A stretch of 64,000 nt of DNA from Macrostomum lignano. Its lineage: Eukaryota. Below, in pieces: positions 4,570 to 58,330 of this stretch. The stretch spans positions 186,001 through 250,000 of the forward strand of contig NIVC01000504.1 of NCBI GenBank assembly GCA_002269645.1. The letters run 5' to 3'. Position 1 is the stretch's first letter; each line of letters opens with the position of its first letter. The translations under genes were made by a program, and so were the position numbers. The notes below the pieces were generated by a model. That model searched no databases, had not been told where the DNA came from, and worked only from the letters and a program-made list of their open reading frames with translations.

Positions 4570-4890
4570 CCATTACCATGAATTCTCACTTCCAGACAAA
4601 CCCCCTTGTCACACAACCGGCGAGAGGGATATTAGTGCTCATTCTGCCGAGTCCCCTGAGCAGGCACACAGGCGCGCGGATACGTACGCAGTCATACGCA
4701 CAGGCACACACTCACTTCATTGTTAGGCATGTACACTTCACTGTGCCTTGTGGGTTGGCCCTCAAGAACGTTAATTGCACGAGCAGAGCCAAGCCGAGAT
4801 TTCAATTGAGCCCCAAATTAATGTGACTGCACTTGGAATCGAGCCTAGGCCACTGGGAGCGCCGCGCTTGACCACTGGGCTACGGGCCTA
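4570..4890 (-). mobile_element. tRNA-headed SINE of a second family
   Basis: Minus strand begins ggcccgtagcccagtggtcaagcgcggcgc...ggctcgattcc (A and B boxes), followed by a non-tRNA body. The 3' end is uncertain. Confidence 0.5.
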
Positions 4891-5111
4891 CGGCTGGTCT
4901 ATAACTAATAGGTTTGAGCCATAGATTAGGTCTAAAAAACAAAAAAAAACGATTTATTAGTATTATACTTAGCTAGTAAACAAAAATTCGACACCTGAAT
5001 TAATACAGCCATATTTTAGAATAACATCAACAGAACAGTCTGCAAAGCTAGTCCCATATAGACTAGTAGTAGAGGGTAAACAATTTTAACTGCCAAGTTC
5101 ACGCGCGAATC

Positions 5112-5570
5112 TTAAATTCCAGATTCAACGCCACTCAAACCCGAGCCGTCTCCGGCGTGACAGTGATCGTACACGATAATCCACAGCACCAGGAATGAAG
5201 CAAACGAAGTCATCAAGCCTTCCTTGAGTATTTCTCCCATTCCGCCATACTCTTCCTCGTCAACGCCTTGGAATAAGCAGGTGTAGGCGTACACAGCGGC
5301 GCAGTTGATCAAGAAGAACAGGCCCAATCCTACGATACCTTTCAATGGTAGCAGACCCCAGACAAGGCCTAGCACAGCTGACAGCAACTGTCTCTGCCAA
5401 TAGACCACATCTAACAGCTCGTCCTTGCTACTCCAATCGGCTTTGGGACGGAGGGAGCGAGCAAAGGTCTCCGATAAGCTGGGCTTCTTAGCGGCAGAGT
5501 CTGGACTGGTGGTGCCAGAGTCGTTAAAAGACGCGTTGGCGCCTCCGCCTCGGTGTCTGGTTGATGCCAT
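5112..5570 (-). CDS. RAB5IF: RAB5-interacting factor / C20orf24 / OPTI (GEL complex subunit, EMC6-related), single exon, 152 aa
   Basis: Family signature WSSKDELLDVVYWQRQLLSAVLGLVWGLLPLKG...VDEEEYGGMGEILKEGLMTSFASFLVLWIIVY. Acceptor ttacaaattgcag lies 20 nt before the ATG. Confidence 0.92.
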   Translation of the reverse strand: MASTRHRGGGANASFNDSGTTSPDSAAKKPSLSETFARSLRPKADWSSKDELLDVVYWQRQLLSAVLGLVWGLLPLKGIVGLGLFFLINCAAVYAYTCLFQGVDEEEYGGMGEILKEGLMTSFASFLVLWIIVYDHCHAGDGSGLSGVESGI

Positions 5571-5631
5571 GCTGCTGGTTCTGTTGCGAGCTGCAATTTG
5601 TAATAACGATATTTACAGTAGATAAGTGACT

Positions 5632-8600
5632 GTATGGGGTCACAGTCTACTGACCTCATGGGGTCACAGTCTACTGACCTCATGGGGTCACAGTCTACTG
5701 ACTTCATGGGGTCACAGTCTACTGACTTCATGGGGTCACAGTCTACTGACCTTATGGGGTCACAGTCTACTGACCTCATGGGGTCACAGTCTACTGACTT
5801 CATGGGGTAACAGTCTACTGACCTCATGGGGTCACAGTCTACTGACCTTATGGGGTCACAGTCTACTGACCTCATGGGGTCACAGTCTACTGACCTTATG
5901 GGGTCACAGTCTACTGACCTCATGGGGTCACAGTCTACTGACCTTATGGGGTCACAGTCTACTGACTTCATGGGGTCACAGTCTACTGACCTTATGGGGT
6001 CACAGTCTACTGACCTCATGGGGTCACAGTCTACTGACCTTATGGGGTCACAGTCTACTGACCTCATGGGGTCACAGTCTACTGACCTTATGGGGTCACA
6101 GTCTACTGACTTCATGGGGTCACAGTCTACTGACCTCATGGGGTCACAGTCTACTGACCTTATGGGGTCACAGTTTACTGACTTCATGGGGTCACAGTCT
6201 ACTGACCTCATGGGGTCACAGTCTACTGACCTTATGGGGTCACAGTCTACTGACTTCATGGGGTCACAGTCTACTGACCTCATGGGGTCACAGTCTACTG
6301 ACCTTATGGGGTCACAGTCTACTGAACTTATGGGGTCACAGTCTACTGACCTTATGGGGTCACAATCTACTGACCTTATGGGGTCACAGTTTACTGACTT
6401 CATGGGGTCACAGTCTACTGACCTCATGGGGTCACAATCTACTGACCTTGTGGCGTCACAGTCTACTGAACTTATGGGGTCACAGTCTACTGACCTCATG
6501 GGGTCACAGTCTACTGACCTTATGGGGTCACAGTCTACTGACATCATGGGGTCACAGTCTACTGACCTAATTATGGAGTCACAGTCTACTGACCTCATGG
6601 GGTCACAGTCTACTGACCTTATGGGGTCACAGTCTACTGACTTCATGGGGTCACAGTCTACTGACCTCATGGGGTCACAGTCTACTGACCTTATGGGGTC
6701 ACAGTCTACTGACTTCATGGGGTCACAGTCTACTGACCTCATGGGGTCACAGTCTACTGACCTTATGGGGTCACAGTCTACTGAACTTATGGGGTCACAG
6801 TCTACTGACCTCATGGGGTCACAATCTACTGACCTTATGGGGTCACAGTTTACTGACTTCATGGGGTCACAGTCTACTGACCTCATGGGGTCACAATCTA
6901 CTGACCTTGTGGGGTCACAGTCTACTGAACTTATGGGGTCACAGTCTACTGACCTCATGGGGTCACAGTCTACTGACCTTATGGGGTCAGTCTACTGACC
7001 TCATGGGGTCACAGTCTACTGACCTTATGGGGTCACAGTCTACTGACATTATGGGGTCACAGTCTACTGACCTCATGGGGTCACAGTCTACTGACTTCAT
7101 GGGGTCACAGTCTACTGACCTTATGGGGTCACAGTCTACTGACCTCATGGGGTCACAGTCTACTGACCTTATGGGGTCACAGTCTACTGACCTCATGGGG
7201 TCACAGTCTACTGACCTTATGGGGTCACAGTCTACTGACTTCATGGGGTCACAGTCTACTGACCTCATGGGGTCACAGTCTACTGACCTTATGGGGTCAC
7301 AGTTTACTGACTTCATGGGGTCACAGTCTACTGACCTTATGGAGTCACAGTCTACTGACCGTATGAGGTCACAGTTTACTGACCTCATGGGGTCACAATC
7401 TACTGACCTCATGGGGTCACAGTCTACTGACTTCATGGGGTCACAGTCTACTGACTTCATGGGGTAACAGTCTACTGACCTCATGGGGTCACAATCTACT
7501 GACCTTATGGGGTCACAGTTTACTGACTTCATGGGGTCACAGTCTACTGACCTCATGGGGTCACAATCTACTGACCTTGTGGCGTCACAGTCTACTGAAC
7601 TTATGGGGTCACAGTCTACTGACCTCATGGGGTCACAGTCTACTGACCTTATGGGGTCACAGTCTACTGACATCATGGGGTCACAGTCTACTGACCTAAT
7701 TATGGAGTCACAGTCTACTGACCTCATGGGGTCACAGTCTACTGACCTTATGGGGTCACAGTCTACTGACTTCATGGGGTCACAGTCTACTGACCTCATG
7801 GGGTCACAGTCTACTGACCTTATGGGGTCACAGTCTACTGACTTCATGGGGTCACAGTCTACTGACCTCATGGGGTCACAGTCTACTGACCTTATGGGGT
7901 CACAGTCTACTGACCTCATGGGGTCACAATCTACTGACCTTATGGGGTCACAGTTTACTGACTTCATGGGGTCACAGTCTACTGACCTCATGGGGTCACA
8001 ATCTACTGACCTTGTGGGGTCACAGTCTACTGAACTTATGGGGTCACAGTCTACTGACCTCATGGGGTCACAGTCTACTGACCTTATGGGGTCACAGTCT
8101 ACTGACCTCATGGGGTCACAGTCTACTGACCTTATGGGGTCACAGTCTACTGACATTATGGGGTCACAGTCTACTGACCTTATGGGGTCACAGTCTACTG
8201 ACCTTATGGAGTCACAGTCTACTGACCTCATGGGGTCACAATCTACTGACCTTATGGGGTCACAATCTACTGACCTTATGGGGTCACAGTTTACTGACTT
8301 CATGGGGTCACAGTCTACTGACCTCATGGGGTCACAATCTACTGACCTTGTGGCGTCACAGTCTACTGAACTTATGGGGTCACAGTCTACTGACCTCATG
8401 GGGTCACAGTCTACTGACCTTATGGGGTCACAGTCTACTGACATCATGGGGTCACAGTCTACTGACCTAATTATGGAGTCACAGTCTACTGACCTCATGG
8501 GGTCACAGTCTACTGACCTTATGGGGTCACAGTCTACTGACTTCATGGGGTCACAGTCTACTGACCTCATGGGGTCACAGTCTACTGACCTTATGGGGTC

Positions 8601-14392: not shown

Positions 14393-17300
14393 CGACAGAC
14401 AGACAAACAGACAGACAGACAGAGAGACAGACAGACAGACAGACAGACAGGCAGGCAGACATGCAGGCAGCCTCACCAGACAGACAGACAGACAGCCTCA
14501 CCAGTCAGACAGACAGACAGCCTCACCAGTCAGACAGACAGACAGCCTCACCAGTCAGACAGACAGCCTCACCAGTCAGACAGGCGGTATAAGCCAGCAT
14601 AGCCTGCACGCTGGCAGCATTCCCGGCAGACACGGCCAGTTCCAGAGCCAGCCGGTGCTCAAAGTCGCGCACAGCCGGGCAGGCACCGTACTCAAGCAGC
14701 AGTCGAACTGCCAAAGCATTGTCCTCAGCCGCGGCCATAGCCAGAGCAGTCCTGCCCGTGGCCGGATGCTGGCCGTTAATGGGACAGTCAGGCTGGTCTA
14801 ACAGGAACTGCAAGGCAGACATGGAGTTGCATTTGGCGGCCAGACACAGCGGCGTGAAGCCGTCAGGATCGGTGACGAACAGGTCGGTGTGACGGAACCT
14901 TGCAGCCAGCTGGTCCGGCAGACGAGAGACGAGTTCGGCTATGACGCGAGATCGTTGGTTGCGCCGTCTGCACAGATGCATGAGTATATATTTTGTGGCG
15001 TCAAATTTTAGGGTTACTACACCGATTTTATATATTATTTCTAATTCAAGCGGTCTCTAATCTCACCTGTTTGTCCCTAGTCTCATCTGCCTGTCTCTAG
15101 TCTCACCTGTTTGTCTCTAATCTCCACTGTTTGTTTCTGATCTCCCATTTTTGTCACTAATCTCACCTGTTTGTCTCTAGTCTCATCTGCCTGTCTCTAA
15201 CCCAATCTGCCTGTCTCTAGTCTCACCTGTTTGTCTCTAATCTTACCATCCTGTCTTTAATCTCCACTGTTTGTTTCTAATCTCACCTGTTCGTCTTTAC
15301 TCCCATCCGCCTATCTCTAATCCCATCTGCCTGTCTCTAGTCTCACCTGTTTGTCTCTAATCTAACCTGTTTGTCTTGGGTCTACGACGTTTGCCTGCGG
15401 GACGTTTGCCAGCCGACGTTTGCCTGCTGGACGTTTGCCAGCCGACATTTGCCAGCCGACGTTTGCCAGCCGACGTTTGCCAGTGGGACGTTTGCCAGCC
15501 GAAGTTTTCCTGCCGGACGTTTGCCTGCGGGACGTTTGCCAGCCGACATTTGCCAGCCGACGTTTGCCAGCCGACGTTTGCCAGCCGACATTGGCCAGCC
15601 GACATTTGCCAGCCGACGTTTGCCAGCGGGACGTTTGCCAGTCGGACGTTTGCCAGCCGACGTTTGCCAGCCGACGTTTGCCTGCCGGAAGTTTGCCAGC
15701 CAAAATTTGCTAGCCAATATAAAGCCAGTCAGTGAAAAATTTGATACTGAAACATTCGCAGTTTAGCGGTTTGACAAAAACCGTTTTTACTCCAACTTTC
15801 TGACGGTTATTCGCATGTATACAAGTTTGAATGTGAAAATATTAGATAGATAGATAGGATTTCACTTTGAATGTGAAAATATTGTTTACTTTTGGCAATT
15901 GTGTATCGTTTTTCCCAGTTTGAGATGTTTGATTTTTGATGTGCGAAAGAAGACGCGCAGATTTCAACGGGAATCTCCAGCGATTAAGTTATGAGGCAAA
16001 CAAAAAGAGCTGCTGAGCGGTAATTCTGGCTCATATATTTCTCAGTTCATTGGGAGATCCAAAAGTAAGCAAATTGATTCCAATTCTGTTGTATTACTAC
16101 TCAAGTAAGCCAGGAAACCGCGATCTCAACGTACATGTGTAGACGAGTCGAATGCGGTACGTTTGTATAGTAAGCTATATAGCTGAATAGCCAGACAAGC
16201 CGCCAGTAGCAAGCTAGTAGGATAGCAAGCGCTAGACACTACGTATGCAAAGCTTAGTCACGCCAAGGACTACTAAAGTAGAAGTACGCAGCACTCGAAA
16301 TCTATGAAAAATGTTTTGAAGGCCATAGGGAGATAGGAAGTTTTCATCTTTTCAGCACAACAATTGTTATTGCTTTCATACGAGGCAAACCCAATGTTCA
16401 TCTTTTGATATGTTGTGCCAAAATCGTTGTTAAACTAGATATTAGACGTTAGACTGATGAACTGCATAATTTATATATTTTGCTTTCAAACTTGTATACA
16501 TGCGAATAACCGTCAAAAAGTTGGAGTAAAAACGGTTTTTGTCAAACCGCTAAACTGCGAATGTTTCAGTATCAAATTTTTCACTGACTGGCTTTATATT
16601 GGCTAGCAAATTTTGGCTGGCAAACTTCCGGCAAGCAAACGTCGGCTGGCAAACGTCGGCTGGCAAACGTCGGCTGGCAAACGTCCGGCAGGCAAACGTC
16701 GGCTGGCAAACGTCCGGCAGGCAAACGTCCGGCAGGCAAACGTCTCACTGGCAAACGTCGGCTGGCAAACGTCGGCTGGCAAATGTCGGCTGGCAAACGT
16801 CCCGCAGGCAAACGTCGGCTGGCAAACGTCCCGCAGGCAAACGTCGCTATCCCGTTTGTCTTTAATCTCACCTGTTTGTCTCTAATCTCACCTGTTTGTC
16901 TCTAATCTCACCAGCCTGTCTCTAATCTCCACTGTTTGCTTCTAATGTCATCTGTTTGTCTCTACTCTAATCTGCCTGTCTCTAATCCCATCTGCCTGTC
17001 TCTAATCTCACCTGTTTGTCTCTAATCTTACCAGCCTGTCTCTAATCCCATCTGCCTGTCTCTAGTCTCACCTGTTTGTCTTTAATCTCACCTTTGTCTT
17101 TAATCACCTGTTTCTAATCCCACAGCCTGTCTCTAATCTCTACTGTTTGTTTCGAATCTCCCATGTTTGTCTCTTAATCTCATCTGTTTGTCTCTAATCT
17201 CATCTGTCTGTACTTCACTCCCACTCTCACCTGTCTTTCTCTTACTTAATCTACCTGTCTCTTATCGGACATTAAATCAAGGCTCTAATCTCAGATTTCT

Positions 17301-23460: not shown

Positions 23461-24510
23461 AAGCCGACTGAGGATTTTGGAGTCTGAGAATTACTATCTA
23501 CTAGGCTAGCAGAAAAAATACAGCACTAAGTATAGCCACATTTGAATATGTGCGATAGATATATATGTCGATGCAGGACGCGAAGCAGTATATTTATCGG
23601 ATTAAACTTACTCGAAAGTACAACAGAAACGGACATATGCTAATGGCTATGCAGGGGTTAAGTTACAATCCAACTGTAACAACAGCAGCTCCGATATAGA
23701 CATTCAGATTCAAAACCCTATTAAGTTAAAAAAACTATGAAATTAAGGACAAATTGAGGTGATAATCAAAAAACTTCTACAAAATCGTAGGTTTTAAAAG
23801 TGCTTTACTGAACTTACTACTGATCTAGTGGTTGCAAGTAGTATAGTAGTGGTATAAGACGAAAAAATCGATTATATCTAAATAAGTAGGTTACTTATAG
23901 AAGGCATCCATAATTAGTATAATCAGCTATACAGTTAAATTGGCTACTTTAAATAGTCACGCAAGCCAAATACTAGTAAAAATAACTATTGTTAAACAAT
24001 TAGTTTATACAATGGGCTACGTAAAGGTAATTGAAAGCGCACAAGGATATGTACAGGTTTTCAACAAAAATAAAAACTAATTCTAATATACAAAAAACGG
24101 CAAATCAAACATTCCAAACAAATAATTTATGCTTAACTTTGTTTCTAAAAAAGACCCTTTTATATTTTAACCCTTTTTTCCGCGTGTTAGATTGCGCTTT
24201 GAAAAACAAACTACGCTACATATCGGTGTTTTAAGATTTAATCAATATGCATAAGAGAAAAAATAGGAAACAACTTAATAATCAATATACAGATATTTTT
24301 GGGATAAAATTGAAAAAAGATCACTATTTACAATGAGATCTACTGATAGTAATGAAGCGCCATCCAACTAAAAAACTTCAAAAACCAAATTAATAAACTG
24401 TGAATTAGGAGTAGCTCGTATCGATAAATGATAAAAAGGCATAAATAATAAGAAAAAAGTGCGAAGCGTTCGAATATTTACCTATATACTTTAAGGTAGC
24501 ATAACATTGA

Positions 24511-27230: not shown

Positions 27231-27959
27231 GGCCAGAGTTTGCCTGACATTCTGCGCAGCACCCCAGCCAACAATATCAATGTTTGCCTCAAATCCTAAT
27301 TTTACATTAATTTACACTATTTTATGTTTAACTCTATCCTAACTATTAACAAGGGAACAAGTTTTTGTTTGAGTTTTACCTCAGATTTTAGAATACATGC
27401 AAAAATAATTCCGGGGATTTTGTTCCCCGGGTTCAAAATCCGCGGGTTTCAACAGCTTGTTTAGAATATATAAGAAAGAGCATTATTTTTCGTTTTTCAC
27501 TTATAACTTTACCCTCCTAATTGCCAGTCTACTTTGAGTACAGCGATGCCGCTTTTGCCGATCTTTTCGATTGAGTTTTTATTCGCAAATTTTTTAAATT
27601 ATCTGTGTTCTGTTTTAAAAGCCTAAAATATTGTCTGAAATAGTAATTCTAAGAGTGAGTACAGTTACTAACGTAAATACAAATTTAAAGATTTGCAAAC
27701 TATTAGCTGAAACTTCTGATAGATTCTGTAAATAAAGAAATTACAACTACTGTAAGTAATAAACGACAGTTTAGGTTAAATATGCTATTACACTTACACG
27801 GTATTGCAGAATATTTAACTGTCACTAAATGAATCGAATAAAAACGTCCTACAAACAGACTGATCAAAGAAAGTGACCAAAACGAGAAGCGCCACTGGAG
27901 AGACCTGCAGATTCTTGAAATCTCCATACACAGAACTAATCAAGAATAACTCTATAGAC

Positions 27960-28568
27960 AGACTTGAGAATCATCCATAGAAAAACCATGAGAAACGCCT
28001 CATCGACAAACCATGAGAATTACGCTTCATTGACAAACCATGAGAATTACGCCTCATCGACAAACCATGAGAATTACGCTTCATTGACAAACCATGAGAA
28101 TCGGCCTGATAGACAAACGAAGAAAATCGCTTCATTGACAAACCATGAGAATCGGCCTACAGACAACCATGAGAATCGCCACATAGGCGAACGATGAGAA
28201 TCGCCCCATAGACAAATCATGAGAATCGCCCCGTAGACAAACCATGAGAATCGCCCAAAGACAAACCATCATGAGAATCGCCCATAGACAAACCATGAGA
28301 ATCGCCCCATAGACAAAGCATGAGAATCGCCCCATAGACAAACCATGAGAATCGTCCCCATAGACAAACCATGAGAATCGCCCCATAGACCAAGAGAATC
28401 GCTTCATAGACAAACCATGAGAATCGCCCCATAGACAAACCATGAGAATTAATCGCCCCACATACAAACCATGAGAATCACCCACATACAAACCATGAGA
28501 ATCACCCATAGACAAACCATGAGAATCGCCCACAGACAAACCATGAGAATCGCCCCATAGACAAACCA
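27960..28568. repeat. 24-25-bp minisatellite array A (CATGAGAATCGCCCCATAGACAAAC)
   Basis: Direct reading; it is the reverse complement of array B (28945-30178). Confidence 0.93.
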
Positions 28569-28625
28569 GAGATCAAGTCCAGCTGCAGTTTAGAATTGAC
28601 CCTATCTATCACAGCTGAAAACAGT

Positions 28626-31553
28626 TTAGCTAGATTCCGGATCTTCATTAGCATCAGCGATTCGATCTCCGCGATAGCGGAGAAACGAAACGGCGGCCGC
28701 GGCTGCCAGATTAGCCGAAGCGTCAGCAAACTGCTGCTGTTGCCGATTCTGCCGACTGCGGCTACCACCGTCGCCTGAGGCCGACGTCGGCGGCGCGACG
28801 GGTAGAAATGCCCGCAGCTCGTCCTCTTCTTCTTCGCTGCTCTCCTGGGTAATCTGGCGCTCGACTGCGGCTCTGATAAAGAGAAGAGCAAGATTATATA
28901 AAAATAATAGTCACCCGTGTGTTAGTTTTTAGAGCCAATCTCAGGTCCATGAAGCGATTCTCATGGTTTGTCTATGGGGCGATTCTCATGGTTTGTCTAT
29001 GGGGCGATTCTCATCCTTTGTCTATGGAGTGATTCTCATGGTTCGTCTATGGAGTGATTCTCATGGTTTGTCTATGGGGTGATTCTCATGGTTTGTCTAT
29101 GGCCTATGGGCCGATTCTCAATGTTTGTCTATGGCCTATGGGTTGATTCTCATGGTCTATGTCCTATGGGCCGATTCTCATGGTTTATCTATGGCCTATG
29201 GGCGATTCTCATGGTTTGTCTATGGGGTGATTCTCATGGTTTGTCAATGAAGCGTAATTCTCATGGTTTGTCGATGAGGCGTTTCTTATGGTTTGTCTAT
29301 GGATGATTCTCATGGTTTGTCTATGGGGTGATTCTCATGGTTTGTCTATGGGCGATTCTCATGGTTTGTCTATGGGGCGATTCTCATGCTTTGTCTATGG
29401 GGTGATTCTCATGCTTTGTCTATGGGGTGATTCTCATGCTTTGTCTATGGGCGATTCTCATGGTTTGTCTATGGGGTGATTCTCATGCTTTGTCTATGGG
29501 GCGATTCTCATGCTTTGTCTATGGGGTGATTCTCATGCTTTGTCTATGGGTGATTCTCATGGTTTGTCTATGGGGTGATTCTCATGGTTTGTCTATGGGG
29601 CGATTCTCATGCTTTGTCTATGGGGTGATTCTCATGCTTTGTCTATGGGCGATTCTCATGGTTTGTCTATGGGGCGATTCTCATGCTTTGTCTATGGGGT
29701 GATTCTCATGCTTTGTCTATGGGCGATTCTCATGGTTTGTCTATGGGGTGATTCTCATGGTATGTCTATGGGCGATTCTCATGGTTTTTCTATGGGGTGA
29801 TTCTCATGCTTTGTCTATGGGCGATTCTCATGGTTTGTCTATGGGGTGATTCTCATGCTATGTCTATGGGCGATTCTCATGGTTTTTCTATGGGGTGATT
29901 CTCATGCTTTGTCAATGGGCGATTCTCATGCTTTGTCTATGGGGCGATTCTCATGGTTTGTCTATGGGGCGATTCTCATGCTTTGTCTATGGGGTGATTC
30001 TCATGGTTTGTCAATGAAGCGTAATTCTCATGGTTTGTCGATGAGGCGTTTCTCATGGTTTGTCTATGGATGATTCTCATGGTTTGTTTATGGGCGATTC
30101 TCATGGTTTGTCTATGGGGCGATTCTCATGGTTTGTCTATGGGGCGATTCTCATGCTTTGTCTATGGGGTGATTCTCAGATCTGTTTACACAAAATATTC
30201 ACAGAACATAACCGAACTACTGACGTTGATTAAAAAGACAACTGTCTCACCTGATAGACGATGGCCTATCAATAAACTGAGTCTCCTCTCTGAGCACAAC
30301 AGCATCGTCTTCCAGCTTGCCGTGCTCAGCCAGATAAGCATTTAACTGTTGCAGATATGGCAGAACAACCTGCGGCCAACGATAGACTTTATAAGGCGGA
30401 TAGAGCAGCAGGGACATCATTGCCACGTAGCCCAACAGCCAGCCGTGAAAGAAGGTTCCCAAATAGGCAATCAAAGCTGAGGTTGCGGAGGTGGTTAGAA
30501 AAAACCTCAGTCGACGATTTCGACGCTGCCGACGAGCCCAAGCGACGAGGGCGAATAGTCTGCGAACTCGTTCGTCAACCCATTGCGCTACATCCTGGAT
30601 GGAGGCAAGATGAGCCTCAACTGGGACCCAGTCGTCTTCGCGATCGAATTCTTCGGGAACTATGAGGCGTATAACGGGTGGCTTTTTAAATGTATGCCGA
30701 TATGTATAGAAAAATATGACGCAGATATTAGTCCATTTTAATTTGCATTCTTAGGCCACTAACACTACTGATGTCATATTGATACTACTGATGCCACATC
30801 AGATCCTACTCGTGCCATATCAGATACTACTGATGCCATATCAGATGCTACTGATGCCATATCAGATGCTACTGATGCCATATCAGATACTACTGATGCT
30901 ATATCAGATACTACTGATGCTATATCAGATACTACTGATGCCATATCAGATGCTACTGATGCCATATCAGATACTACTGATGCCACATCAGATACTACTG
31001 ATGCTACATCAGATACTACTGATGCTACATCAGATACTACTGATGCTACATCAGATACTACTGATGCCATATAAGATACTACTGATGCCATATCAGATAC
31101 TACTGATGCCATATCAGATACTACTGATGCCATATCAGATACTACTGATGCCATATCAGATACTACTGATACCATATTGAGTCAACAAGTATATTTTAGC
31201 TTCTAATTAAGTGTCCTATAGTCGGTTTAAGAAATCCTACACACTAAAAGTACACACAGGTTAAATCTAAACTCACCTTTAATCTCCTTCCAAATATAAG
31301 TTTTCCACATATCGGCTATCACCAGTAGTAGTAGTAGAAAACTTAGAATAGTCAGAGTGCCATGATTGCACAGGTAGCAATAGACAAAGGTGACATGAAT
31401 AGCAACATAGAATGCTATTGATTTAGTTCCATCACGGAATATCAGCAGAGTTTGCAGTCGCATAAATGCTGGCTCCCACGGGCTGATGGCGTCTTGCAGG
31501 CATTTGCCAATACTGTCATGCCCAGACCAGTGCATTTGACCGCTTTTTGACAT
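28626..31553 (-). CDS. RETREG: FAM134/RETREG reticulophagy-regulator homolog; exons 31553-31277, 30660-30251, 28872-28626
   Basis: Reticulon-homology pattern LQTLLIFRD..SIAFYVAIHV...LLLVIADMWKTYIWKEIKVP..DWVPV; second hairpin FFLTTSATSALIAYLG..GWLLGYVAMMSLLLYP; downstream EEEEDELRAFLP motif. Phase-consistent GT-AG joins. Confidence 0.78.
28945..30178. repeat. 24-25-bp minisatellite array B (GATTCTCATGGTTTGTCTATGGGGC) in RETREG intron 2
   Basis: Direct reading. Confidence 0.95.
30770..31175. repeat. 21-bp internally palindromic minisatellite (ATCAGATACTACTGATGCCAT) in RETREG intron 1
   Basis: Direct reading; ATCAG...CTGAT stem in each unit. Confidence 0.93.
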
Positions 31554-46826: not shown

Positions 46827-49800
46827 TTACTTCTCACTGCAGCTGATCCGCGACTCCCTAGTAACGCTGAAAGTGCCAGAGAAGGTGAATCCCAGATTTC
46901 GCAGGAACTGATCCGCCTCAGGGGGCCCGTTCCTAGCGCCGTAGGCGTACGGCAGAGGTTTCACAGCTTTGGCATCTAACTCGTGCAGAATCGGCGTGAA
47001 TATGCGCCACGCTTCGCGCAGCTCATCGGTGCGAACGAAATTCACCTGAAAATTGAGCGCTTGTTTTCAGATTCAGATTTTTGAAAATACTAACTACTCT
47101 ACTGCTAGTAGAATCGCATTATTTATTTCTTCAATTGAAAATTAAAACATGATAAAAAATGAGCTTAATTTGGCATGAACATCTGCTACACCCTTTATGA
47201 TCCTTCAGTGACCGTCTGCTTCACCCTTTATGAACCTTCAGTGATCGTCTGCTACACCTTTTATGATCCTTCAGTGACCGTCTGCTTCACCCTTTATGAA
47301 CCTTCAGTGATCGTCTGCTACACCCTTTATGATCCTTCAGTGACCGTCTGCTTCACCCTTTATGAACCTTCAGTGACCATCTCCCACCCTTCTTTTCTTC
47401 ATTTTCTTTAGTGATTCTTCAGTGACCTACTATCTGCAATCATTCTATGATCTTTCAGTGACAATTAGCTACCACCTCTATGATCCTTCAGTGACAATTA
47501 GCTACCACCTCTATGATCTTTCAGTGACAATTAGCTACCACCTCTATGATCCTTCAGTGACAATTAGCTACCACCTCAATGATCCTTCAGTGACCATTAG
47601 CTATCAACTCTATGATCCTTCAGTAACCATTAGCTATCACCTCTATGATCCTTCAGTAACCATTAGCTACCACCTCTATGATCCTTAAGTGACAATTAGC
47701 TACCACCTCTATGATCCTTCAGTAACCATTAGCTATCACCTCTATGATCCTTCAGTAACCATTAGCTACCACCTCTATGATCCTTCAGTGACAATTAGCT
47801 ACCACCTCTATGATCTTTCAGTGACAATTAGCTACCACCTCTATGATCCTTCAGTGACTATTAGCTACCACCTCTATGATCCTTCAGTGACAATTAGCTA
47901 CCACCTCTATGATCCTTCAGTGACAATTAGCTACCACCTCTATGATCCTTCAGTGACTATTAGCTACCACCTCTATGATCCTTCAGTGACAATTAGCTAC
48001 CACCTCTATGATCCTTCAGTGACAATTAGCTACCACCTCTATGATCCTTCAGTAACCATTAGCTACCACCTCTATGATCCTTCAGTAACCATTAGCTACC
48101 ACCTCTATGATCTTTCAGTGACAATTAGCTACCACCTCTATGATCCTTCAGTGACAATTAGCTACCACCTCTATGATCCTTCAGTGACAATTAGCTACCA
48201 CCTCTATGATCCTTCAGTGACAATTAGCTACCACCTCTATGATCTTTCAGTGACCATCTATGGGCATACCAACCGCTATATATAAACTCTATATATTCTA
48301 TAATAGTATACAAAACTGTACATCTGTAGTATCCCAACTGGAATCATGTATTTTTAACCCCGTCCCAACTACAATACACAAACGCACCTGAGATCCGCAC
48401 AGTACATCCAATAGCAATCGTTCGTAAGCATCCGGCAGCTTAACCTTAGAGAATCGTTTACTATAGGACAGGTCTAGTTCGGTCTCCTCCGCGCCGAAAC
48501 CCATGCCTGGCCGCTTTGTCATGCACTTGATGTACACAGCTTCGTTCGGTTGCACTCGCATTACTAACTCGTTTCGGTGCACTACACCAGACTCGAATAT
48601 ATCGCCGCTAACGTCTTTAAATTGGATTCGAACTTCGCATTTAGTCTCGTTGAGAGCTTTGCCAGCTCGGATAATGAATGGAACTCCGTCCCACCGTTCG
48701 TTCTTAATGTACAGCGCCGCCATGCCGTAGGTGGCCGCCAGCGACCCGGCTGGTACAGTGGCGTCGTCAAGGTAACCGGGTTTGCCTGTTTCCGAATTGG
48801 CAACGTATTGCCCGATGACGATGTCTTTGAGTTCGATTGGCCGAATACTTCTTAGTACCTTCACCTGCGTCAGGCATATGTTTTAAGTGTTTTTAGCTAC
48901 CGATATGTTTCGAAATAATCATAATAAATGATAATATACTTTCCTAGAAGATGATAGGAAAGAAGGCACTTAGTAAGACTTTAATACACTACCGATATGT
49001 TTGGAAAGGAGCAATAACCAAGTATTTTGAGAGAAGACTGATAAAGCAAAAACAATAGTTAGGTATAAGCCTAATAGACTACCGATATGTTTTGAAATGA
49101 TTTTAATCAATGGCTAAATGCAGAACTAGTTATTTTAGAAAAAGAAAATTAGTAATGTTTTATTAGACTACCGATAAGTTTTGAAACTTCCAAACCTTTT
49201 CATCGCGAATATCATCGGCAGCCATTGACAGCGGCTTCTCCATAGCAATTAAGCTAAGCACCTGCAACAGGTGATTCTGCATCACGTCTCGAATAATGCC
49301 GAATTCGTCGAAATAACCGCCGCGGCCCTCCGTGCCAAAGTTTTCCTGCAAAATTTATTAGATTTTAATCAATATTTCAAGCGACCGATAGGGTGTCCAA
49401 GGTTCAAGTTAAGTTTAGGTTAACAATAAAGTCCAATGTGTATTATTTTTTGGCTGCTAAAGTTCAAGGTGTCCTATTGGCTGCTGAAGTTCAAGGTGTC
49501 CTATTGGCTGCTAAAGTTCAAGGTGTCCTATTGGCTGCTAAAGTTCAAGGTGTCCTATTGGCTGCTAAAGTTCAAGGTGTCCTATTGACTAATAATTGTT
49601 CCATGTGTCTTATTGACTGATAAGTTCCATGTGTCCTATTGGCTGTAAAGTTTAATGTGTCCTATTGACCGATAAGTTTAATGTGTCCTATTGACTAGTC
49701 ACAAGGTGTCCTTTTGACTGGTAAGTTTAAGATGTCCTTTTATTGGCGAAAGTTCAAGATGTCTTTTTTGACTAAAGTGTAAGGTGTACTGATTAAGTTC

Positions 49801-51354
49801 AAGATGTACTTTAGACTAAAGTTTAAGGTGTACTTTTGGCTAAAGTTTAAGATGTCCTATTGGCTTTTGGTTAGGTGTCCTTTTGAATTTGTCCTATTGT
49901 CTACTTAAGTTTAATGTGTCCTAAGTGCTAAACTTCATAGAAACCTAACTAATGGCTAAAGTTCACACTGAATGACTTACCTTAAACGTGACCAACACGT
50001 TAGCAATATTATCCCTATTCCACAATGGCGCCAAAATCCGATTAGCAAACCGCAGCACCACCACATTCTGGACCATCTCCTTGCCCAGATAGTGATCAAT
50101 GCGGTACACCTGATCCTCAGTGAACAGATTCGATAGGTGCTGGGACAGGATCTCGCTAGTGTGCAAATCTCTACCAAATGGTTTCTCAATGATCACCCTT
50201 GACCAGCCCTGTTGATCAGGACTGAAGCACTCGGATTTCAAATGAGTGGCCACGTGCATGAACAAGGAAGGCGGTATGGCCAGGTAGTACACTCGATTGC
50301 AACTGGCGTACTCTGTACTGCTGCGAATGTACTGCTCCAGTTTGGCGAAGTCTTCTCGCTTGTCGTAAGAGCCCTGGATTAAATAGGGCACACAGAGAGC
50401 TGCTTATTCAAAAACTAGCTTCACTGGTAAAGCTTATTGAAAAGAAAATAATGTTATAAACTCAAATATATTATCTCTCTGGTTTCAATATCTGATCTGA
50501 ATGACTTCTACCCCCGTCCTCTACCCTCCCCTACTGTCTTCTATCCTCCCCTACTGTCTTCTACCCTCCCCTACTGTCTTCTAGCCTCCCCTACTGTCTT
50601 CTACCCTCCCCTACTGTTTTCTAGCCTCCCCTACTGTCTTTTAGCCTCCCCTACTGTCTTCTACCCTCCCCTACTGTCTTCTAGCCTCCCCTACTGTCTT
50701 TTAGCCTCCCCTACTGTCTTCTAGCCTCCCCTACTGTCTTCTACCCTCCCCTACTGTCTTTTAGCCTCCCCTACTGTCTTCTACCCTCCCCTACTGTCTT
50801 TTAGCCTCCCCTACTGTCTTTTAGCCTCCCCTACTATCTTCTACCCTCCCCTACTGTCTTCTACTCTACCCTACCATCCCTTACTGCCTTCCAATCTCAC
50901 TTAACTGTTTTCTAAATCAAACAAGTCTGAATTAATCCTTCACCTGCACATAGGAATTCCTAGCAAAGAAAGCATCCAATCGTTCTTGTTCGCCATCAAC
51001 GGTGCGCAGATATGGCTTAGCATTGTCCCTGACCATTTGCACAGTCAGACTCGACCTAGAATAGCCAATAAAGAAAGTGTTTGGCGGCAAAAGCTTATCT
51101 TTGAATAGCCACCACAATGTCGGGTAGATTTTCTTCTTAGCCAAATCACCGGAAGCGCCAAATATTATAATAACAACATTTTTAGTGTCCTTCATGTGAC
51201 TGAATTCGGCTTTAGACTCAGCTCTGAGCAGCTGCAGAGTCTGCTCAGACATTGAGACCAGATGAATGCGTTGCATATCTGGGTCCGGTTTTAAGTTTTG
51301 CAACTCTTTATAAGGATTGCAAACATCATCAGCTGCGTGATGCTGAGATGCCAT
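46827..51354 (-). CDS. G6PD: Glucose-6-phosphate 1-dehydrogenase; exons 51354-50944, 50373-49981, 49345-49196, 48864-48388, 47045-46827
   Basis: [84 protein letters not shown]. All five exons join in phase 0 at GT-AG sites. Confidence 0.97.
47175..48260. repeat. 33-bp minisatellite (TATGATCCTTCAGTGACAATTAGCTACCACCTC) in G6PD intron 4
   Basis: Direct reading. Confidence 0.95.
49450..49920. repeat. 27-bp minisatellite (GTCCTATTGGCTGCTAAAGTTCAAGGT), progressively decaying, in G6PD intron 2
   Basis: Direct reading. Confidence 0.85.
50510..50890. repeat. 20-bp pyrimidine-rich minisatellite (CCTCCCCTACTGTCTTCTAC) in G6PD intron 1
   Basis: Direct reading. Confidence 0.93.
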
Positions 51355-52018
51355 TATGATGACTGATGATGCCAGACAGAATCTATATCGATTAACTTAA
51401 CTATATTTTAGTATTAATTCTTGCCTTGGTTGGTTGATCATGAAAAATATTTATTTAGGTGAATTTTTTTTCATCACAATATCTTATAGACATCTTAATC
51501 TAAGAACTCTTACAATAGATTTTAAATCCATAGAATACTAATGTGTCCTACAAATATAAATATATAAGTAAATTATTCAAATAATGACATGTTTACTGCT
51601 TTTTTAAAAAATATTTAAATCTATTTTGCAACAAGGCACAAAACAATTGTTACTTTAGGGAGAATATTGCCATTTATCTAGCTTATTGTTGGTGGACTAT
51701 ATTGCACAGTGTTAAATTATAACATTGTTATAATAACGGCGCCCCTAACGGCGCCCTCTGATTTTCCCATTAATGCCCTTAAAGCATGGGTATTACTATT
51801 ATTGTGCCATAGACATTTGTGTCCTTGACAAAGTGGGACAGAAAATACGAGTAGAAAGGGGGTGTGGGGGCGAAGCCCCCACCAAAAGCCATAGACAAAA
51901 CACGAAATAAGATTTTTAGCAGTAGTACAGTACTAACTTAAGCAGAGAAGAGAAGAGATTAGACTTATCACACCACATACTGCATAAGGTCTGACTAAGA
52001 CAAACTAGATTTAGAAGC

Positions 52019-53181
52019 ATGATCAACTATAGCGGTATCGCAGAGGGCGAGATAAGTGGATTGAATGCTGATGAATTGGAATTTGTAACTCATCAATCTG
52101 CTGGACGCAGTCATGAATCGGCTGTCTCACAATACGACGAACTTCCATTGGTCGACTCGAGATGCATCAACGAGTTCCTTCTGAACGTGACAGAGTTTCT
52201 TGAACTGGACGAGACGGACCTCTAGGAGATAACTAATCTGGAGAAGGCTGCCGTTGTAATTTATGCCAGTACCTGAGACTCTGGTTTTCTACTGTACTGA
52301 AAGCTGATGGCTCTGCCTACAGTTGCAGCACGCTAGTTTGCATGAGGGCTGCTATTCACCTTTTTCTGCTGGCCAAGCGGGGTCTGTCTCTGATTGGGAA
52401 TCCCGACTTCCTTGAACTAGAAAAAACCTTCAAGGCCGCTCTGACGTATTCACTTAAGCAGCCTACTTCCGTGGTTGATGGCGACGGTGGATACCGAGCT
52501 ATTGACGTCGTTGACTTGGCCAAGCTGTCTGCGTATTTCGACCGGACTGATCCTAAGAAGCTGCAACACGAGACGTTCTTCCTGATTGTGTATCACTTCG
52601 GATTCAGGGGACGTGAGTGGATTCGATCTCTGGACAAAAATGATGAGGAAACAATGAAAATGATTGTGTATCCTCATTTAAAAAAAAATGAGGATTGTAT
52701 TGACCTTGCGAAGGAAAAAAGGGAGAAGAACGTCTCGGCCAGAAGTGCAAGCACGAAGAAGGAGATTGGTATATTCCCGGTGGCGGACGAAGCCAAGTGT
52801 CCTGTTCAGGCAGTGATGCTCTACCTGTCTAAACTGCCGGAGGAGAATTTGAGCCTGTTTCCTAAGCCTCGAGCGAAATGGACCGACAGGGAGTGGTACT
52901 GCAAGAAAGAAGTCATCAGCAAGAACACCCTGGCCGAGCTAATGAAAGAAATATCTAAAGCTGCCGGCCTTTCCTACATGTACACTAATCATTGCATCTG
53001 CTCGACAATGATCATGAACCTGTCGGAGCAAGGTTTCAATCTGGAGCAGATCCAGACCGTCTCCAGTCACAAGAAGGTTGAAAGCGTGCTTTGCTATACG
53101 AAACGAGTCTCGGTGGAACAGAAACGCAGTCTGTTGAGTGCAATGACATCCGGCTTGCATGGTCTGGACTCTGGAGGATGA
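52019..53181 (+). pseudogene. Crypton-type tyrosine recombinase (DUF3504 / KIAA1958 / ZMYM-related), disrupted; element extent about 51760-53690
   Basis: LRLWFSTVLKADGSAYSCSTLVCMRAAIH, DLAKLSAYF..DPKKLQ, YHFGFRGRE, CPVQAVMLYLSKLP, TNHCICST (HxxR changed to HxxC), SSHKKVESVLCY. Stop and frameshift near 52225-52260. Hairpins flank the ORF. Confidence 0.8.
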
Positions 53182-53699
53182 AGTCCCACTGAAGCGCGCA
53201 AACTTGGATCTATTGCCTGCTTCTAGTGCGTCCAACGGCGAGTCCACACCTACTGTGTCGAATGAGCGTCAGGGGGACCTGACTGTCGTGTTGGAAAAAA
53301 ATGGCCTAAAGGTGTCCATATTTATGTAGCAGATAAGTGTAACTGGTGGATTGAATTAAATTGACAATTGTTGTTTTGTTTTTGTTGCATTTATGTTCTA
53401 GTCTTCACATGTTTCATGCTGAGTTGTTCTACAAATAAAGCAGTTGTGTAACTGTCTGCAAATTAGCGGGCAGTTAATGTCATTATCTGCCCACTATTTG
53501 CAGGCATTTAATGTCATTAACTGCCCACTAATTTGCATTAAAGTAAGGTTGACATAGACTTTTTGTTCAATATTTCTTTCCTGCAAGCGGGCTTTAATGT
53601 AGTCTATGGCATTAAAAGGCAAGAATAAGTGCCCAGCGGGCACAAAGGTCATGGTACAATAGAAGTGGAATTCATTGCTAGCCAATGATGACAATTAAA

Positions 53700-56600
53700 A
53701 TTATTCTAAATTACAACTGGGGAACTAATTGATATAAAAATGTTATATATGTAAAAATGTTGCTTTTAAGCTTTATTTATTTACTAGGCCTATAGAATCA
53801 TTTTCGTCAAAAAAGTAAATTTTATTATTGAATGTATTGGCCCATAATATATATTAGCTCTCTCCTTTATGCTCAATAAAGCTTACCTTTTCTATTCTTA
53901 TGTAAGGGGCATCTCAGTTCTATGTTTCTATGATTATAATACATTTGAATGTGCCAAAAACTAAGAAAAACAATTTGCTATAACATATATATATATTTAT
54001 AATATTTTACAAGTCTAATTTTTCTTAAAACCAACACAAAATTTAGTATAAATAGAAGCAAATCTCAGTGGAGGAAGTACCAACCTCACACATTGTGGTT
54101 CATTGAGAGAGAAAGCTAGTAGCCAATAATAAGAGTTCCAAGTAAATATAATTGAAGACTATTTTCTAAGATAATTCATTTTCTATTGAAGTGAAATAGG
54201 ACAATATACTGTATATACTACTGAAAAGTAAAGAACCAGAAAGGAGAAATATGAAGTAGATCTTAGCAGTATATATAGAGTACTAGAAGCTATGACCCTT
54301 TGATCCTGGAAATGCTCAGGATTGGAAAGATCATATATGTAGTACATATACCGAATAACAATAAGAATGCTACCAGAATAATAGTAAGAATACTACAAGA
54401 ATAACAGTGGAATGCTACCAGAATATTAATAGAATGCTACCTATGAGAGTTAGCTAATACTTAGAACAATTCTCAGACTAATACTCAGACCTATGCTTAG
54501 ATAAATACTCAGACCTATACTAAGAACTTTTCTCAGACTTATTCTAGGAAAATAAATTCATAATAGAATAGTCTTGGTGGCAGCAATAGAACATTTAAGG
54601 GACAAAAGGAAAGCCTTGTACAACTTTGGTGGCAGCTTTTAGGATACTCACAAGGTGAAAAGCAGTATCCCTACTATAGCTAGGCCTAGTGGCAGTTGTG
54701 AGATTTCCTAGCATATAGGAAACATGCCTGTAACACTTATAACTTATTGTTAGCTATTTTTAAATCATTAAAAACCATAAATCATAGTTTATAGATATAG
54801 ATTAGCCATTGCTTGTATTGGCCATAGCTAGTCCATATAACTAATCTGAAAATGCTTTCTAATCCAATGCTTTTCTAGCACTAAGGAAAGCAGTCTCAAG
54901 AAATGAATAGACCTCTTTAGGCTGGATATATAGTGCCAAAGGGGTTAGGTCAATTGGCAAAGCAGTGCAATAGAAATTGTTTATGACTATTTTGTCATTC
55001 TAACAATTATTGTGGCTCAATGCCAAGGCAAATAGATTAATTGTGGCCTATTAGGAAATAAGAAGCTTATACTAACTAGAGTGCAACTGACCAAGGATAG
55101 GCATTGATGATAGCTGAGGAGACACTTGGAGATATTGATAATAGGTATGCAAGCCAAAAACTAGGTTAAGTAAACATTCAATACTATCCTATAATTATTT
55201 TAAATATATAATAATACTAAGAACATTGACTTCAATAGACAAATATTAAAGTTATAGCACTTTTACTTTAATTTTTCTTTACAAAAAGTGCTATATTTTA
55301 TATGCATTAAAAATAAATAGGCCTAAAATGCTTCTTTATATCATAATAATATAACTTTCTTGATTACTTGATCAATTTCACAATTTTGTTTCTACATTCA
55401 TAACATATCTAGGCCAAATAATTTTGCCTTGCAGCTAAGTCAAAGTCTAAAGGCTAAATAATTGAAATCATTAAAACTTGCAAAATATCTAAAAATAAAG
55501 ATATATCTTATCATTGAAAATTTGCAAATAAATAACTTTGCAGTTGCGATGCAATTATATCAAAGAAAAGGAAATATAACTTTCTAAAAAAAGTATATGT
55601 TCTATAAAGCAAAAATTTAAAAAATATTTATCTACCCTTTATTTATTGGAATAATAAACCATATAGGCCTAGTCTTTTTCATTGAAAGACTTAGTGAAAA
55701 CTGTGATACAAAAATAAAAGCTTTTGAATTTTGAAATTTATCAAAAAAGAAAGTTTTAAATTGGCCTAACATAAAACTAAAAGTAATTTTAAAATGCAAC
55801 TTGGTAATTAAATTTTTTTTCAATTCTTAACCAATCTTCTTGGGTGCTGACTAATTTGGTAACAAACTAATTCTATGACAAAGATTCATAATAGACATAT
55901 TTGATGAATTTTTGGCAAATTTGGTGAAAGCAAGTTCAGCACAATCTAGGCAAATTTGGCAAAAATTAATGAAGGAAAAACAGTTGTATATAGTTTTATT
56001 AATTTATTTAATATAAAGATATTAGTCAAAACGTAATAGCTATCTTTTTTTCAATTGAGTTTTTTTAATTTAATATTTATTGTTTTGCCTTTTCAATAGT
56101 GATTTCTAAGGAATGTTTGTTAATTTAAGGTCTGATCAAAGCAGCCTTGAAAGCAAAAACCTTTGGCTTTGAGAGTTAGGAAAAATGAGAAAATTACTTT
56201 TTTGTATACTTACTGTTTCTACTTACTAAAGGATCTACTAATCCTATGGCATATTTGTTATAATAAGTGACTAATTTAATGCATAAATTAAACTTTGCAA
56301 TTGAGAAATATACTTGGAACGATTGTAGACAAAAACCAAAAAAAGCTAGGCCTATAGCTTCTCACTTGTCATTTCTTTCTTTCATTCTAAATGAAAACTA
56401 CTTGACAGATATATTTTATTTATCAAAATTTGTAATACCTTTAATATTTTTTAATCTTATCTTATCTTGTCTTAAAATTTTTTGACTTTAGACTTTTCTT
56501 GTCTCAAATCTTGTCTTGGTCTAAATCTTGATTTTTAAGAGCTCTAATCTTGAACAACTCTTCTAGATCATGGCTAGATGCCCTGCAGTACTTATTAACA

Positions 56601-57570
56601 TAAGCCCAGTTCATAGCCATGTATGGCACATCTAATGCCCTATTGGATACACTTAGATGAGTTTCTATAGTACTTTTGTTACCTAGGTAACACTTTTGGC
56701 ACATTTTTCTAGGTGGTACACTACTATAATGTCTAATGCAATGACCAAATGTGACAACAAACTTGCTAACTATTGTTTAACTTTGTTAAAACTTTGTTCA
56801 AAATTCCTTAAATTCAAAAACATAATTAAATGAAATGTTTATCCCCACAGTCCTATGCCAATAATTCTAATTTTATTCACATGGATCCATCTGTATTGAT
56901 AATTTTTAATATATTTTTTGAATAAACTAGGCCTACAGAATACTAAATTAGTAAATAGTATTGAGTACTTTATTACTCTTTAGTACTTTAGTAGTTAAAG
57001 GAGTTAATTTGAAATATTTCCCTAGCTGCCAGCTTTGCTTAGAATGACTGAAGGACCCTGAAGATTAAGGTAAAAAAGACTTGCAAAATTCAAAATTTGA
57101 TGGAGAATGAATGGGAAGTTAGCAAGATGTTAAAATGATAAGGAAGTCACACAATATTGAATAACAAGTACTTAAATAAGATTGGAATTGATTGAAATTG
57201 AAAGAAAGATTGAAAAATAAGTTGAAAATTAGATAGGGGGACAGGCCTACACTACAGAAAGAGTTTTGCATTCTATTAACTGAACTCAGGAAAGTAAGAT
57301 TTATTAAATGGAATAAAACATTGCTAGAAATACGCCATGTCCATGCGGAGGCCTACTTTCAAAATAAGGCCTATCATTGGAGAATGGAGTCAAGTAATGG
57401 ATGGTTGCTGTAGGATCTAACTTTAGGGCCCTATGCTGCATAAAAATATGTTAAACTCAAGTTTAAAGGTTAGAAAATTCAATTTAGATTAAAAAAACTG
57501 TATATTTTGTATGTATTAGTTTTATATTTCGTAAATCTCATAGTGACTAGCTGTCTAGGCCTACTTAACA
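53700..57570. other. CpG-depleted, TAG/CTA-rich AT-rich block, possibly a hypermutated fossil element
   Basis: Hand count of 8 CpG in 53701-57540 versus about 26 in the similarly AT-rich 23521-24480. Ten AGGCCTA sites. Confidence 0.7.
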
Positions 57571-57744
57571 ACGTCTCAACTGTGTGCCGTCTGCCGCCTG
57601 ATATCTCTCAACCCCTCTAAGCTAGCATTGTTCGACTTTTTTGCGATTCAAATTCGCACGGAAAGATTATTATTAAAACATTTGCGAAGATAAGTAAACA
57701 TCCTTACACAAACAACTTGGTCTACTAAAATTCAATAATTGTAA

Positions 57745-58330
57745 ATGCTGTGGGATCAATTTCGGTTTCTTGGGTACATTTACAAGCGTTAGGCAAGACT
57801 ATACTAAAGTAGTAGGACGCAACACTCCAAATCTATGGAAAATGTTTTGAAGGCCACTTTTCCAACAATTTCACTTTTGAATGAATGCACATAGAAATGT
57901 CGTTTTTCGCTGAGAACTTCGACATTTATTCCCCTTTATGATAAAAGAGCATTCCGGCTTTAACATACTTTTTAGTTTTAATTCAAATTTTTAAGCCTAA
58001 ATAATTTTTTATTTCACTTTTCTGAAGGCCAACCCCCATATTTTAACAAGGTTGCCTTGCTATCTGCCTATCTAAAATTAGTTACGGGCCTTAAACTTCA
58101 TTTCTAACTCTTCGAAAAGTTCGATTAGCCATGTAGGATCTGAAAACAGTATAAATTAATGTTAATTGCAAAGCGTTAAATCCAGCAAATTATTTATTTT
58201 AGGTGCCCTTCAAAACTTTTTTCCATGAAACGTGGGTGTCGCGTCGTGTACATTACATAGCTTTAGTTGTTCTTGGCATTAGGAAAACTCAGTGGGATGG
58301 TCCCAGGATAAACGAAAGCACAGCAGCATG
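57745..58330. mobile_element. Degenerate MITE-like inverted repeat
   Basis: Arms at about 57745-57860 and 58200-58330 are diverged reverse complements (actaaagt...tggaaaatgttttgaaggcc versus gcccttcaaaacttttttcca...ctttagt). No TSD identified. Confidence 0.4.

Follow-up and report, generated by a model that had tools for sequence, protein, structure and literature searches.

The question raised by this locus is what could have emptied almost 4 kb of DNA of its CpG dinucleotides. It lies in a 64,000-nt stretch of the Macrostomum lignano genome (assembly GCA_002269645.1, contig NIVC01000504.1, positions 186,001 to 250,000), which we call the window and in whose numbering coordinates are given unless another locus is named. 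The block, a CpG desert at 53700-57570, lies 5' of a G6PD gene. The answer we favor, with a probability of roughly 0.7, is that the desert is non-coding DNA 5' of trans-spliced G6PD, likely its outron, in which CpG was lost by C-to-T change, likely because DNMT1 and DNMT3 methylate the first few transcribed kilobases of housekeeping units in the germline.

The CpG desert and the G6PD gene behind it

The 3,871 nt of the block (GC 29%) contain 8 CpG against 80.6 expected, an observed-to-expected (o/e) ratio of 0.10 (Poisson P ~5e-25, or ~2e-19 if the 0.82 o/e of other AT-rich DNA is taken as the baseline), and the count is 0 across 54361-55540. An initial annotation of the window had drawn attention to this scarcity and to the 26 CpG of 23501-24500 (GC 31%), and our recount gave the same numbers. 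Whether the ratio might be normal for AT-rich DNA was also checked: pooled AT-rich non-desert DNA has a CpG o/e of 0.82, which places the block far beyond the AT-rich norm. The abundance of TAG and CTA reported for the block was confirmed as well, at 24 per kb in pooled deserts (themselves AT-rich, with a GC content of 0.32) vs 16 per kb in other AT-rich DNA. When deserts from 113 loci were pooled, TAGGCCTA occurred in them at 0.87 per kb, ~6 times the 0.14 per kb of other AT-rich DNA, and 7 copies lie inside the 53700-57570 desert.

A 1-kb window counted as a desert if its o/e was under 0.2, tandem repeats made up less than 30% of it and its N count stayed under 50. Within the 64-kb window the block is the sole non-tandem desert; a CpG-free stretch at 5.6-9.4 kb consists of a 24-nt minisatellite. 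In an unselected sample of the genome, made up of 13 scattered stretches and two 100-kb blocks, o/e fell below 0.2 in 9 of 178 non-tandem 1-kb windows, and a desert was present in 5 of 34 stretches of 8.5 kb. That similar blocks are this frequent, and located at gene 5' ends, speaks against foreign DNA, which the initial annotation had offered as an alternative origin.

In all 4 of the runs examined, which come from four studies and whose RNA status was guessed, spliced G6PD contigs stop at 51442 with an identical 20-nt foreign tail, and this tail matches the M. lignano spliced leader (SL) published in PMC8629364. The 5' end of G6PD mRNA thus bears the leader that characterizes SL trans-splicing, so the desert sits 5' of a trans-splice junction. 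An AG acceptor is absent from 51439-51442 in all three genomic copies of the locus, where the genome matches the last four letters of the leader, and the junction is either a non-canonical acceptor or an artefact of assembly polishing. The features of the locus, from the gene outward, are as follows.

48385-48862, minus strand: G6PD exon 4, the last of the exons (1-4) covered by the mapping (splice joints; Pfam)
49194-49344, minus strand: G6PD exon 3 (splice joints; Pfam)
49980-50372, minus strand: G6PD exon 2 (splice joints in 4/4 runs; Pfam)
50943-51442, minus strand: G6PD first exon, with the spliced leader at 51442 (contig ends in 4/4 runs; G6PD_N in Pfam)
51443-51727, minus strand: proximal desert remnant between the trans-splice junction and the insertion (0 CpG in 285 nt)
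51747-53660, plus strand: young Crypton-like tyrosine-recombinase element, in the window copy only (open reading frame [ORF] 52237-53178)
53661-57570, minus strand: core CpG desert, AT-rich non-coding DNA 5' of G6PD and putative outron (8 CpG vs 81 expected)
57571-57700, minus strand: CpG-retaining patch at the far edge (8 CpG vs 5.2 expected in 130 nt)

The desert had been described as sharply bounded. This holds for the right edge, which is common to the three copies; the sharpness on the left is owed to the end of a young transposon at 53660. The ORF of this transposon at 52237-53178 gives a Phage_integrase match and, below the cut-off, a DUF3504 match in Pfam, and we take this 1.9-kb tyrosine-recombinase element to be Crypton-like. 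It is missing from the other two copies, designated C31 and C3741. The whole G6PD neighborhood exists in three genomic copies of ~97-98% identity, the core desert being nearly identical in the two others, and duplicated chromosomes have been described for M. lignano (PMC8629364). In C3741, 572 nt with 0 CpG link the leader junction to the desert core, so the pre-insertion desert was ~4.4 kb long. At the far edge, we regard the CpG-retaining patch as a candidate promoter or start site; position 57491 is covered by a low-depth contig of one run only.

Mutations in the insert, the repeat relics and the three copies

The young insert serves as a natural reporter of local mutation. Its comparison with its only other full locus shows that 24 of the insert's 92 CpG have been lost, to TG (15) and CA (9), with a single change in the reverse direction (binomial P=1.5e-6); other C/G transitions number 8 of 620, and CpA/TpG changes to TpA 1 of 226. 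The CpG losses increase toward the desert, at 5/30, 4/26 and 15/34 from left to right (P=0.003). Because the donor locus of the insert is CpG-rich, position and not repeat status appears to be decisive in this comparison of two independent loci.

Comparisons among three genomic copies gave a similar result. In 9 sets, CpG transitions amounted to 23 of 213 in CpG-poor zones vs 16 of 1,238 elsewhere, and an independent replicate of 10 sets yielded 10 of 118 vs 44 of 2,956; among the G6PD-region copies, no CpG excess was seen downstream (6/658) or in the gene body (1/184). Such a CpG-specific C>T excess within the target zone is a feature of gene-body methylation. Combining both three-copy sets also revealed a general C>T excess in deserts. 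The initial annotation had suggested CpA-to-TpA change in addition. CpA changes in deserts did exceed those at CpC/CpT in the first sets (29/1468 vs 10/2250, P=2e-5), only weakly so in the replicate (32/877 vs 31/1352, P=0.07), and these rates of 2.0% and 3.7% lie under that of CpG and at 1.6-4.5 times that of CpC/CpT. Being strong in one set, weak in the replicate and absent from the insert, a CpA component is possible but unproven.

The desert itself is a patchwork of old repeats. At least four unrelated relics of 150-750 nt, with 70-80% identity to their paralogs, account for 41-44% of it as a lower bound.

53935-54640, no strand assigned: repeat relic A, with 22-24 nt internal repeats (24 non-self loci, 70-80% identity)
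55841-56212, no strand assigned: repeat relic B (paralog comparison)
56546-56831, no strand assigned: repeat relic C, which contains a minus-strand peptide quoted in the initial annotation (76-79% identity)
56822-57097, no strand assigned: repeat relic D, with inverted ends (paralog match)

Where paralogs of relic A read CG, the window mostly reads TG, CA or TA. Relic B was compared with a CpG-rich copy (locus L062), whose 16 CG are read in the window as TG (8), CA (3), TA (2) or other (3) and never as CG. The initial annotation had proposed checking substitution context against paralogs, and its suggestion of CpG loss by C-to-T deamination, of the kind that dense germline methylation (5-methylcytosine, 5mC) would be expected to cause, is supported by the insert, the relic paralogs and the three-copy comparisons alike.

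Its reading of the block as one old gag-like element did not survive. The zinc-knuckle peptide strings on which this reading drew are present as quoted, the first of them adjoining relic A on the right, but translation of the desert in six frames, with X at stops, matched no Pfam family at E<=1 (very decayed relics could escape such a search), and five short ORFs of the desert likewise had no Pfam match. A single gag/long terminal repeat (LTR) element was rejected, as neither gag, zinc-knuckle nor pol homology was found and no stand-alone full-length paralogs exist: the only full-length paralogs of the desert are the copies carrying the entire gene neighborhood, and the rest are pieces of 150-750 nt. 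The proposal of fungal-type repeat-induced point mutation (RIP) fared no better. RIP is recognized by a low substrate index and a composite index above 0; for the desert, TpA/ApT is 1.05, the substrate index 1.29 and the composite index -0.24, and the effect tracks position, not repetition. Duplication as the trigger was rejected in view of the CpG retained by the donor locus and by the other repeats of the window, which are CpG-rich as the initial annotation had stated, and CpA as the main target was rejected in view of the 1/226 in the insert and the precedence of CpG over CpA.

Paralogs of the relics are themselves found in deserts at 23 of 28 independent loci vs 3 of 81 unselected pieces of like size, which may reflect insertion preference, retention or a search bias toward CpG-poor copies. 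Pfam analysis of 77 ORFs flanking these paralogs named host genes at 3 loci only, and in each of the three the CpG-poor side is at the gene's 5' end. A mariner relic within one desert had no usable paralog. At another locus, the internal repeat of relic A, 22-23 nt long, has grown into a minisatellite (L024, 1501-2505). Desert length also varies between copies of one gene (loci L211-L230), the deserts often being unalignable or split by CpG-rich inserts; this suggests fast turnover, and each such insert could be another mutation reporter.

Deserts at the starts of housekeeping genes

Using one copy per gene, hand-picked from longer match lists, we scored a gene as positive if a desert lay within 8.5 kb upstream of its first matched exon. 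By this score a desert precedes proteasome genes in 11 of 14 cases and translation GTPases in 12 of 13, compared with 1 of 20 G-protein-coupled receptors (GPCRs). The difference (23/27 housekeeping genes vs 1/20 GPCRs) is significant at P=2e-8, or at P=2e-6 (23/32 vs 1/20) when five rows set aside beforehand are restored, namely two copies of EF1a plus three GTPase matches whose start falls within the domain, all of them negative. An apparent desert at a GPCR locus (L136) was discarded as a run of N. With constitutive status assigned by gene family, the targets are thus constitutive rather than tissue-specific genes, as in gene-body methylation, with EF1a and most Ras-family loci negative.

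Deserts situated 6-8 kb from the scored gene stand directly before another gene on the same strand (HMG-box, EMP70), as does the one at PEX13, at 3-5 kb, and one unselected desert precedes a CAF1 exon. At locus L142 (oriented 3000-8400), a proteasome gene and a ubiquitin/AN1 zinc-finger gene are arranged head to head, separated by a desert, a weak CpG bump and a second desert; the bump is a candidate bidirectional promoter. Rough scaling of a 5% share of non-tandem DNA gives ~ten thousand deserts, a number that agrees in order of magnitude with the trans-spliced units given in PMC5730564 (18,894 plus 4,596). Among the papers listed by our literature search, we found no description of a 5' desert pattern; Wasik et al. 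2015 may contain one.

In two genes the desert coincides with the first cis-intron and hence with transcribed DNA. The first coding exon of Rab11 lies at the start of a desert that fills intron 1 (16 CpG vs 101 expected), with 57 vs 75 in intron 2 and 110 vs 102 in the upstream DNA, and the first coding exon of a proteasome alpha gene (locus L152) lies ~300 nt inside a desert that reaches exon 2. In G6PD, CpG depletion fades over the successive introns (0/5.0, 2/5.7 and 5/6.3). Together with the gradient of loss in the insert, this fading points to a source near 57.6 kb, and from these two gradients we infer that the G6PD desert is transcribed. For seven genes the next intron was mapped; summed over them, it holds 30 CpG vs 41.8 expected, and the kilobase before the exon 38 vs 154.7. 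The o/e ratio at synonymous C3-G1 sites is 0.84 in 15 exons adjacent to deserts, 1.08 in six genes far from their desert and 0.99 in 20 GPCRs. CpG is therefore retained in later introns and most coding exons; the canonical coverage of exons and most of the gene body was not found, and the pattern, as read from its mutation scars, would represent a 5'-restricted and mostly non-coding variant of gene-body methylation.

Methylation as the likely cause, and its rivals

The CpG-poor stretches at the front of housekeeping genes are likely scars of germline methylation. The genome encodes DNMT1-, DNMT2- and DNMT3-type enzymes, with three copies of each gene, and so possesses the DNMT1 and DNMT3 pair associated with gene-body methylation. 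Low 5mC together with DNMT1 and DNMT3 has been reported for M. lignano (PMC11292947, PMC10658182), and the pattern of its methylation was termed unknown in 2022 (PMC9246332). The DNMT3 protein (846 aa) has ADD and catalytic domains and no Pfam PWWP match at E<=10; a degenerate, intron-split PWWP lies at 5516-6115 and 6480-6875 of its locus (L251; P0001). In a weak alignment with the human DNMT3A/B PWWP, Gln stands in place of the methyl-lysine cage Phe, a single Tyr is left of the WW pair, and the distal Trp is retained. We presume that the cage residues can be transferred to DNMT3A numbering. They are named for DNMT3B in PMC10618690, which also describes honeybee PWWP domains whose changed cages bind other marks. 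We hypothesize that the Macrostomum DNMT3 may no longer read trimethylated lysine 36 of histone H3 (H3K36me3). A short CpG-poor stretch also lies upstream of the DNMT3 gene.

Under the methylation model, DNMT1 and DNMT3 would maintain dense germline methylation over the first few transcribed kilobases of housekeeping units, with 5mC as the probable cause of CpG loss. At G6PD, transcription would begin near 57.6 kb. Methylation would start right behind an unmethylated promoter and fade over ~2-6 kb, so that later introns, most coding exons and downstream operon genes would escape. Repeated loss of CG to TG or CA, joined by a general and partly CpA-biased C>T excess, would lead to a GC content of ~30% and an excess of TAG and CTA. 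More speculatively, the degenerate PWWP might uncouple DNMT3 from H3K36me3 and leave a 5' cue of the H3K79me type, and the mark might silence and erode transposons that land in outrons and first introns. Extended to the whole genome, the model would have Macrostomum gene-body methylation shifted off the exon-rich body onto the interval between the start site and, approximately, the first splice acceptor (outron or first intron), because a degenerate-PWWP DNMT3 ignores H3K36me3; it would be dense and partly CpA, would shred transposons in the germline, and its scar would mark the hidden starts of trans-spliced genes and operons genome-wide. We offer this wider version tentatively and think it rather doubtful as a whole.

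Comparison with known systems brings out what would be unusual here. Mosaic gene-body methylation in Nematostella, annelids and molluscs, as presented in PMC13345969 and PMC11292947, shares the CpG context, DNMT1 and DNMT3, the housekeeping targets, an apparently spared promoter and the inclusion of transposons within the zone; in Macrostomum, however, the footprint ends after a few kilobases, and later introns, operon-internal genes and most coding exons retain CpG. Some insects (Planococcus citri, N. vespilloides) show restriction to the 5' end of housekeeping genes, over the first three exons (PMC7343188). Insect methylation as described there is exon-enriched, whereas the Macrostomum footprint reaches its greatest depth in non-coding DNA of outrons and first introns (o/e ~0.1) and is, unlike that of 5'-biased insects, strong enough to rewrite base composition. 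The 5'-first, H3K79me2/3-linked remethylation reported for Nematostella (PMC13345969) likewise has a 5' gradient independent of H3K36me3, but it is a difference in the speed of recovery over a fully methylated body, whereas Macrostomum apparently displays a steady state, read from sequence alone. Fungal RIP resembles the deserts in C>T change on both strands, reduced GC and raised TpA; it differs in that the Macrostomum loss tracks position, CpG outranks CpA, and neither the substrate nor the composite index takes a RIP-like value.

Several points weigh against the methylation model. The evidence for methylation is mutational throughout; the insert test rests on two independent loci; and the three-copy comparisons, which are pooled and require invariant flanks, use an imperfect majority-of-three polarity and draw on zones set by local CpG o/e, of which the 'normal' zone includes selected exons. 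No desert was found within reach of 3 of the 14 proteasome genes and 1 of the 13 GTPases. In the Ras family, a set of mostly divergent intronless paralogs, deserts occur at only 3 of 20 loci (two of them copies of one gene) and at 3 of the 6 that bear introns. The GPCR control is weakened by the possibility of start sites over 8.5 kb away from the matched domain. No desert flanks the validated 1.3-kb promoter of EF1a on either side (PMC5730564; locus L234, 7146-8484); this promoter has a small CpG cluster before a short 5' untranslated region (UTR) intron, and genes that are expressed at very high levels or not trans-spliced may escape the process. Contigs from the four runs of guessed RNA status cover almost none of 53774-57292, which we weighed neither way but list here; strand skew was inconsistent over 19 gene-adjacent deserts and the window; and a motif search at 25 far edges recovered as promoter candidates only TAGGCCTA-like words, which are themselves desert-wide.

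Some of these points would also fit with methylation of untranscribed DNA upstream of the G6PD promoter rather than of an outron, as the G6PD start site near 57.6 kb is only a candidate, strand skew is absent, contig cover is nearly lacking and the DNA upstream of the putative EF1a start, but not that downstream, is slightly CpG-poor. We consider this arrangement unlikely, given that the Rab11 and proteasome alpha deserts begin at the first coding exon and fill intron 1, that the insert shows more CpG loss with growing distance from the leader junction and depletion fades through the G6PD introns, both pointing to a source near 57.6 kb, and that outrons are removed quickly. It is also quite improbable that the mutagen was something other than 5mC decay with a preference for CpG, such as a transcription-linked cytidine deaminase, another base mark or a repair gap acting on active genes in their 5' part. 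In deserts every class of C>T change is raised, and CpG loss amounts to 15 of 34 in DNA otherwise only ~1-2% diverged; still, the per-base excess of ~10-fold, and up to ~20-fold, falls within the range known for methylated CpG, both strands are affected (15 TG, 9 CA), DNMT1 and DNMT3 are present and 5mC has been reported for the species.

Selection for AU-rich, CpG-free outron or first-intron sequence, with no methylation involved, would account for deserts that are AT-rich (GC 0.32) and end near splice acceptors, yet it would hardly bring 24 individual CpG transitions to fixation within a single young insert whose other sites have barely changed, and equally AT-rich DNA elsewhere has an o/e of 0.82; we give it very little weight. 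Least of all do we credit an old gag-like element methylated or RIP-mutated as a repeat, or foreign CpG-poor DNA. The repeat matches over 41-44% of the desert, the 23 of 28 paralog loci in deserts and some CpA>TpA excess would suit such an origin, which is nonetheless largely refuted by relics that come from several unrelated families and match no Pfam family in six frames, by the CpG-richness of other window repeats and of the same element at its donor locus, by the way deserts follow gene starts, and by the RIP indices.

If methylation is the cause, the deserts amount to a testable methylation map drawn from the genome's letters. According to the model, the little 5mC that M. lignano has overall should be gathered in a few percent of its genome, immediately behind housekeeping promoters and for the most part not in coding exons, so that screens of CpG in coding sequence would overlook it. 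The species would provide a natural setting in which to ask if DNMT3 targeting can do without H3K36me3, a question posed for Nematostella in PMC13345969. In a flatworm model with transgenesis, desert edges would further indicate promoters of trans-spliced genes and operons, which are hidden in the mature mRNA.

Around the desert, the minus strand of the window from 440 to 51442 carries a 51-kb run of same-strand genes headed by G6PD and including DUF5586, RETREG-like, SDR, ankyrin and EMC6 genes. The only desert is at its head; the lack of others along the run would be expected behind an operon head, and the run is possibly an operon. On the other side, the C31 copy has a ~12.7-kb insertion at 58016-58027 of the window, with a 12-nt overlap, and mariner-like remnants lie at 58.6-60.7 kb. 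Minisatellite blocks at 15385-16846 and 27954-30178 form long inverted arms in a foldback-like arrangement.

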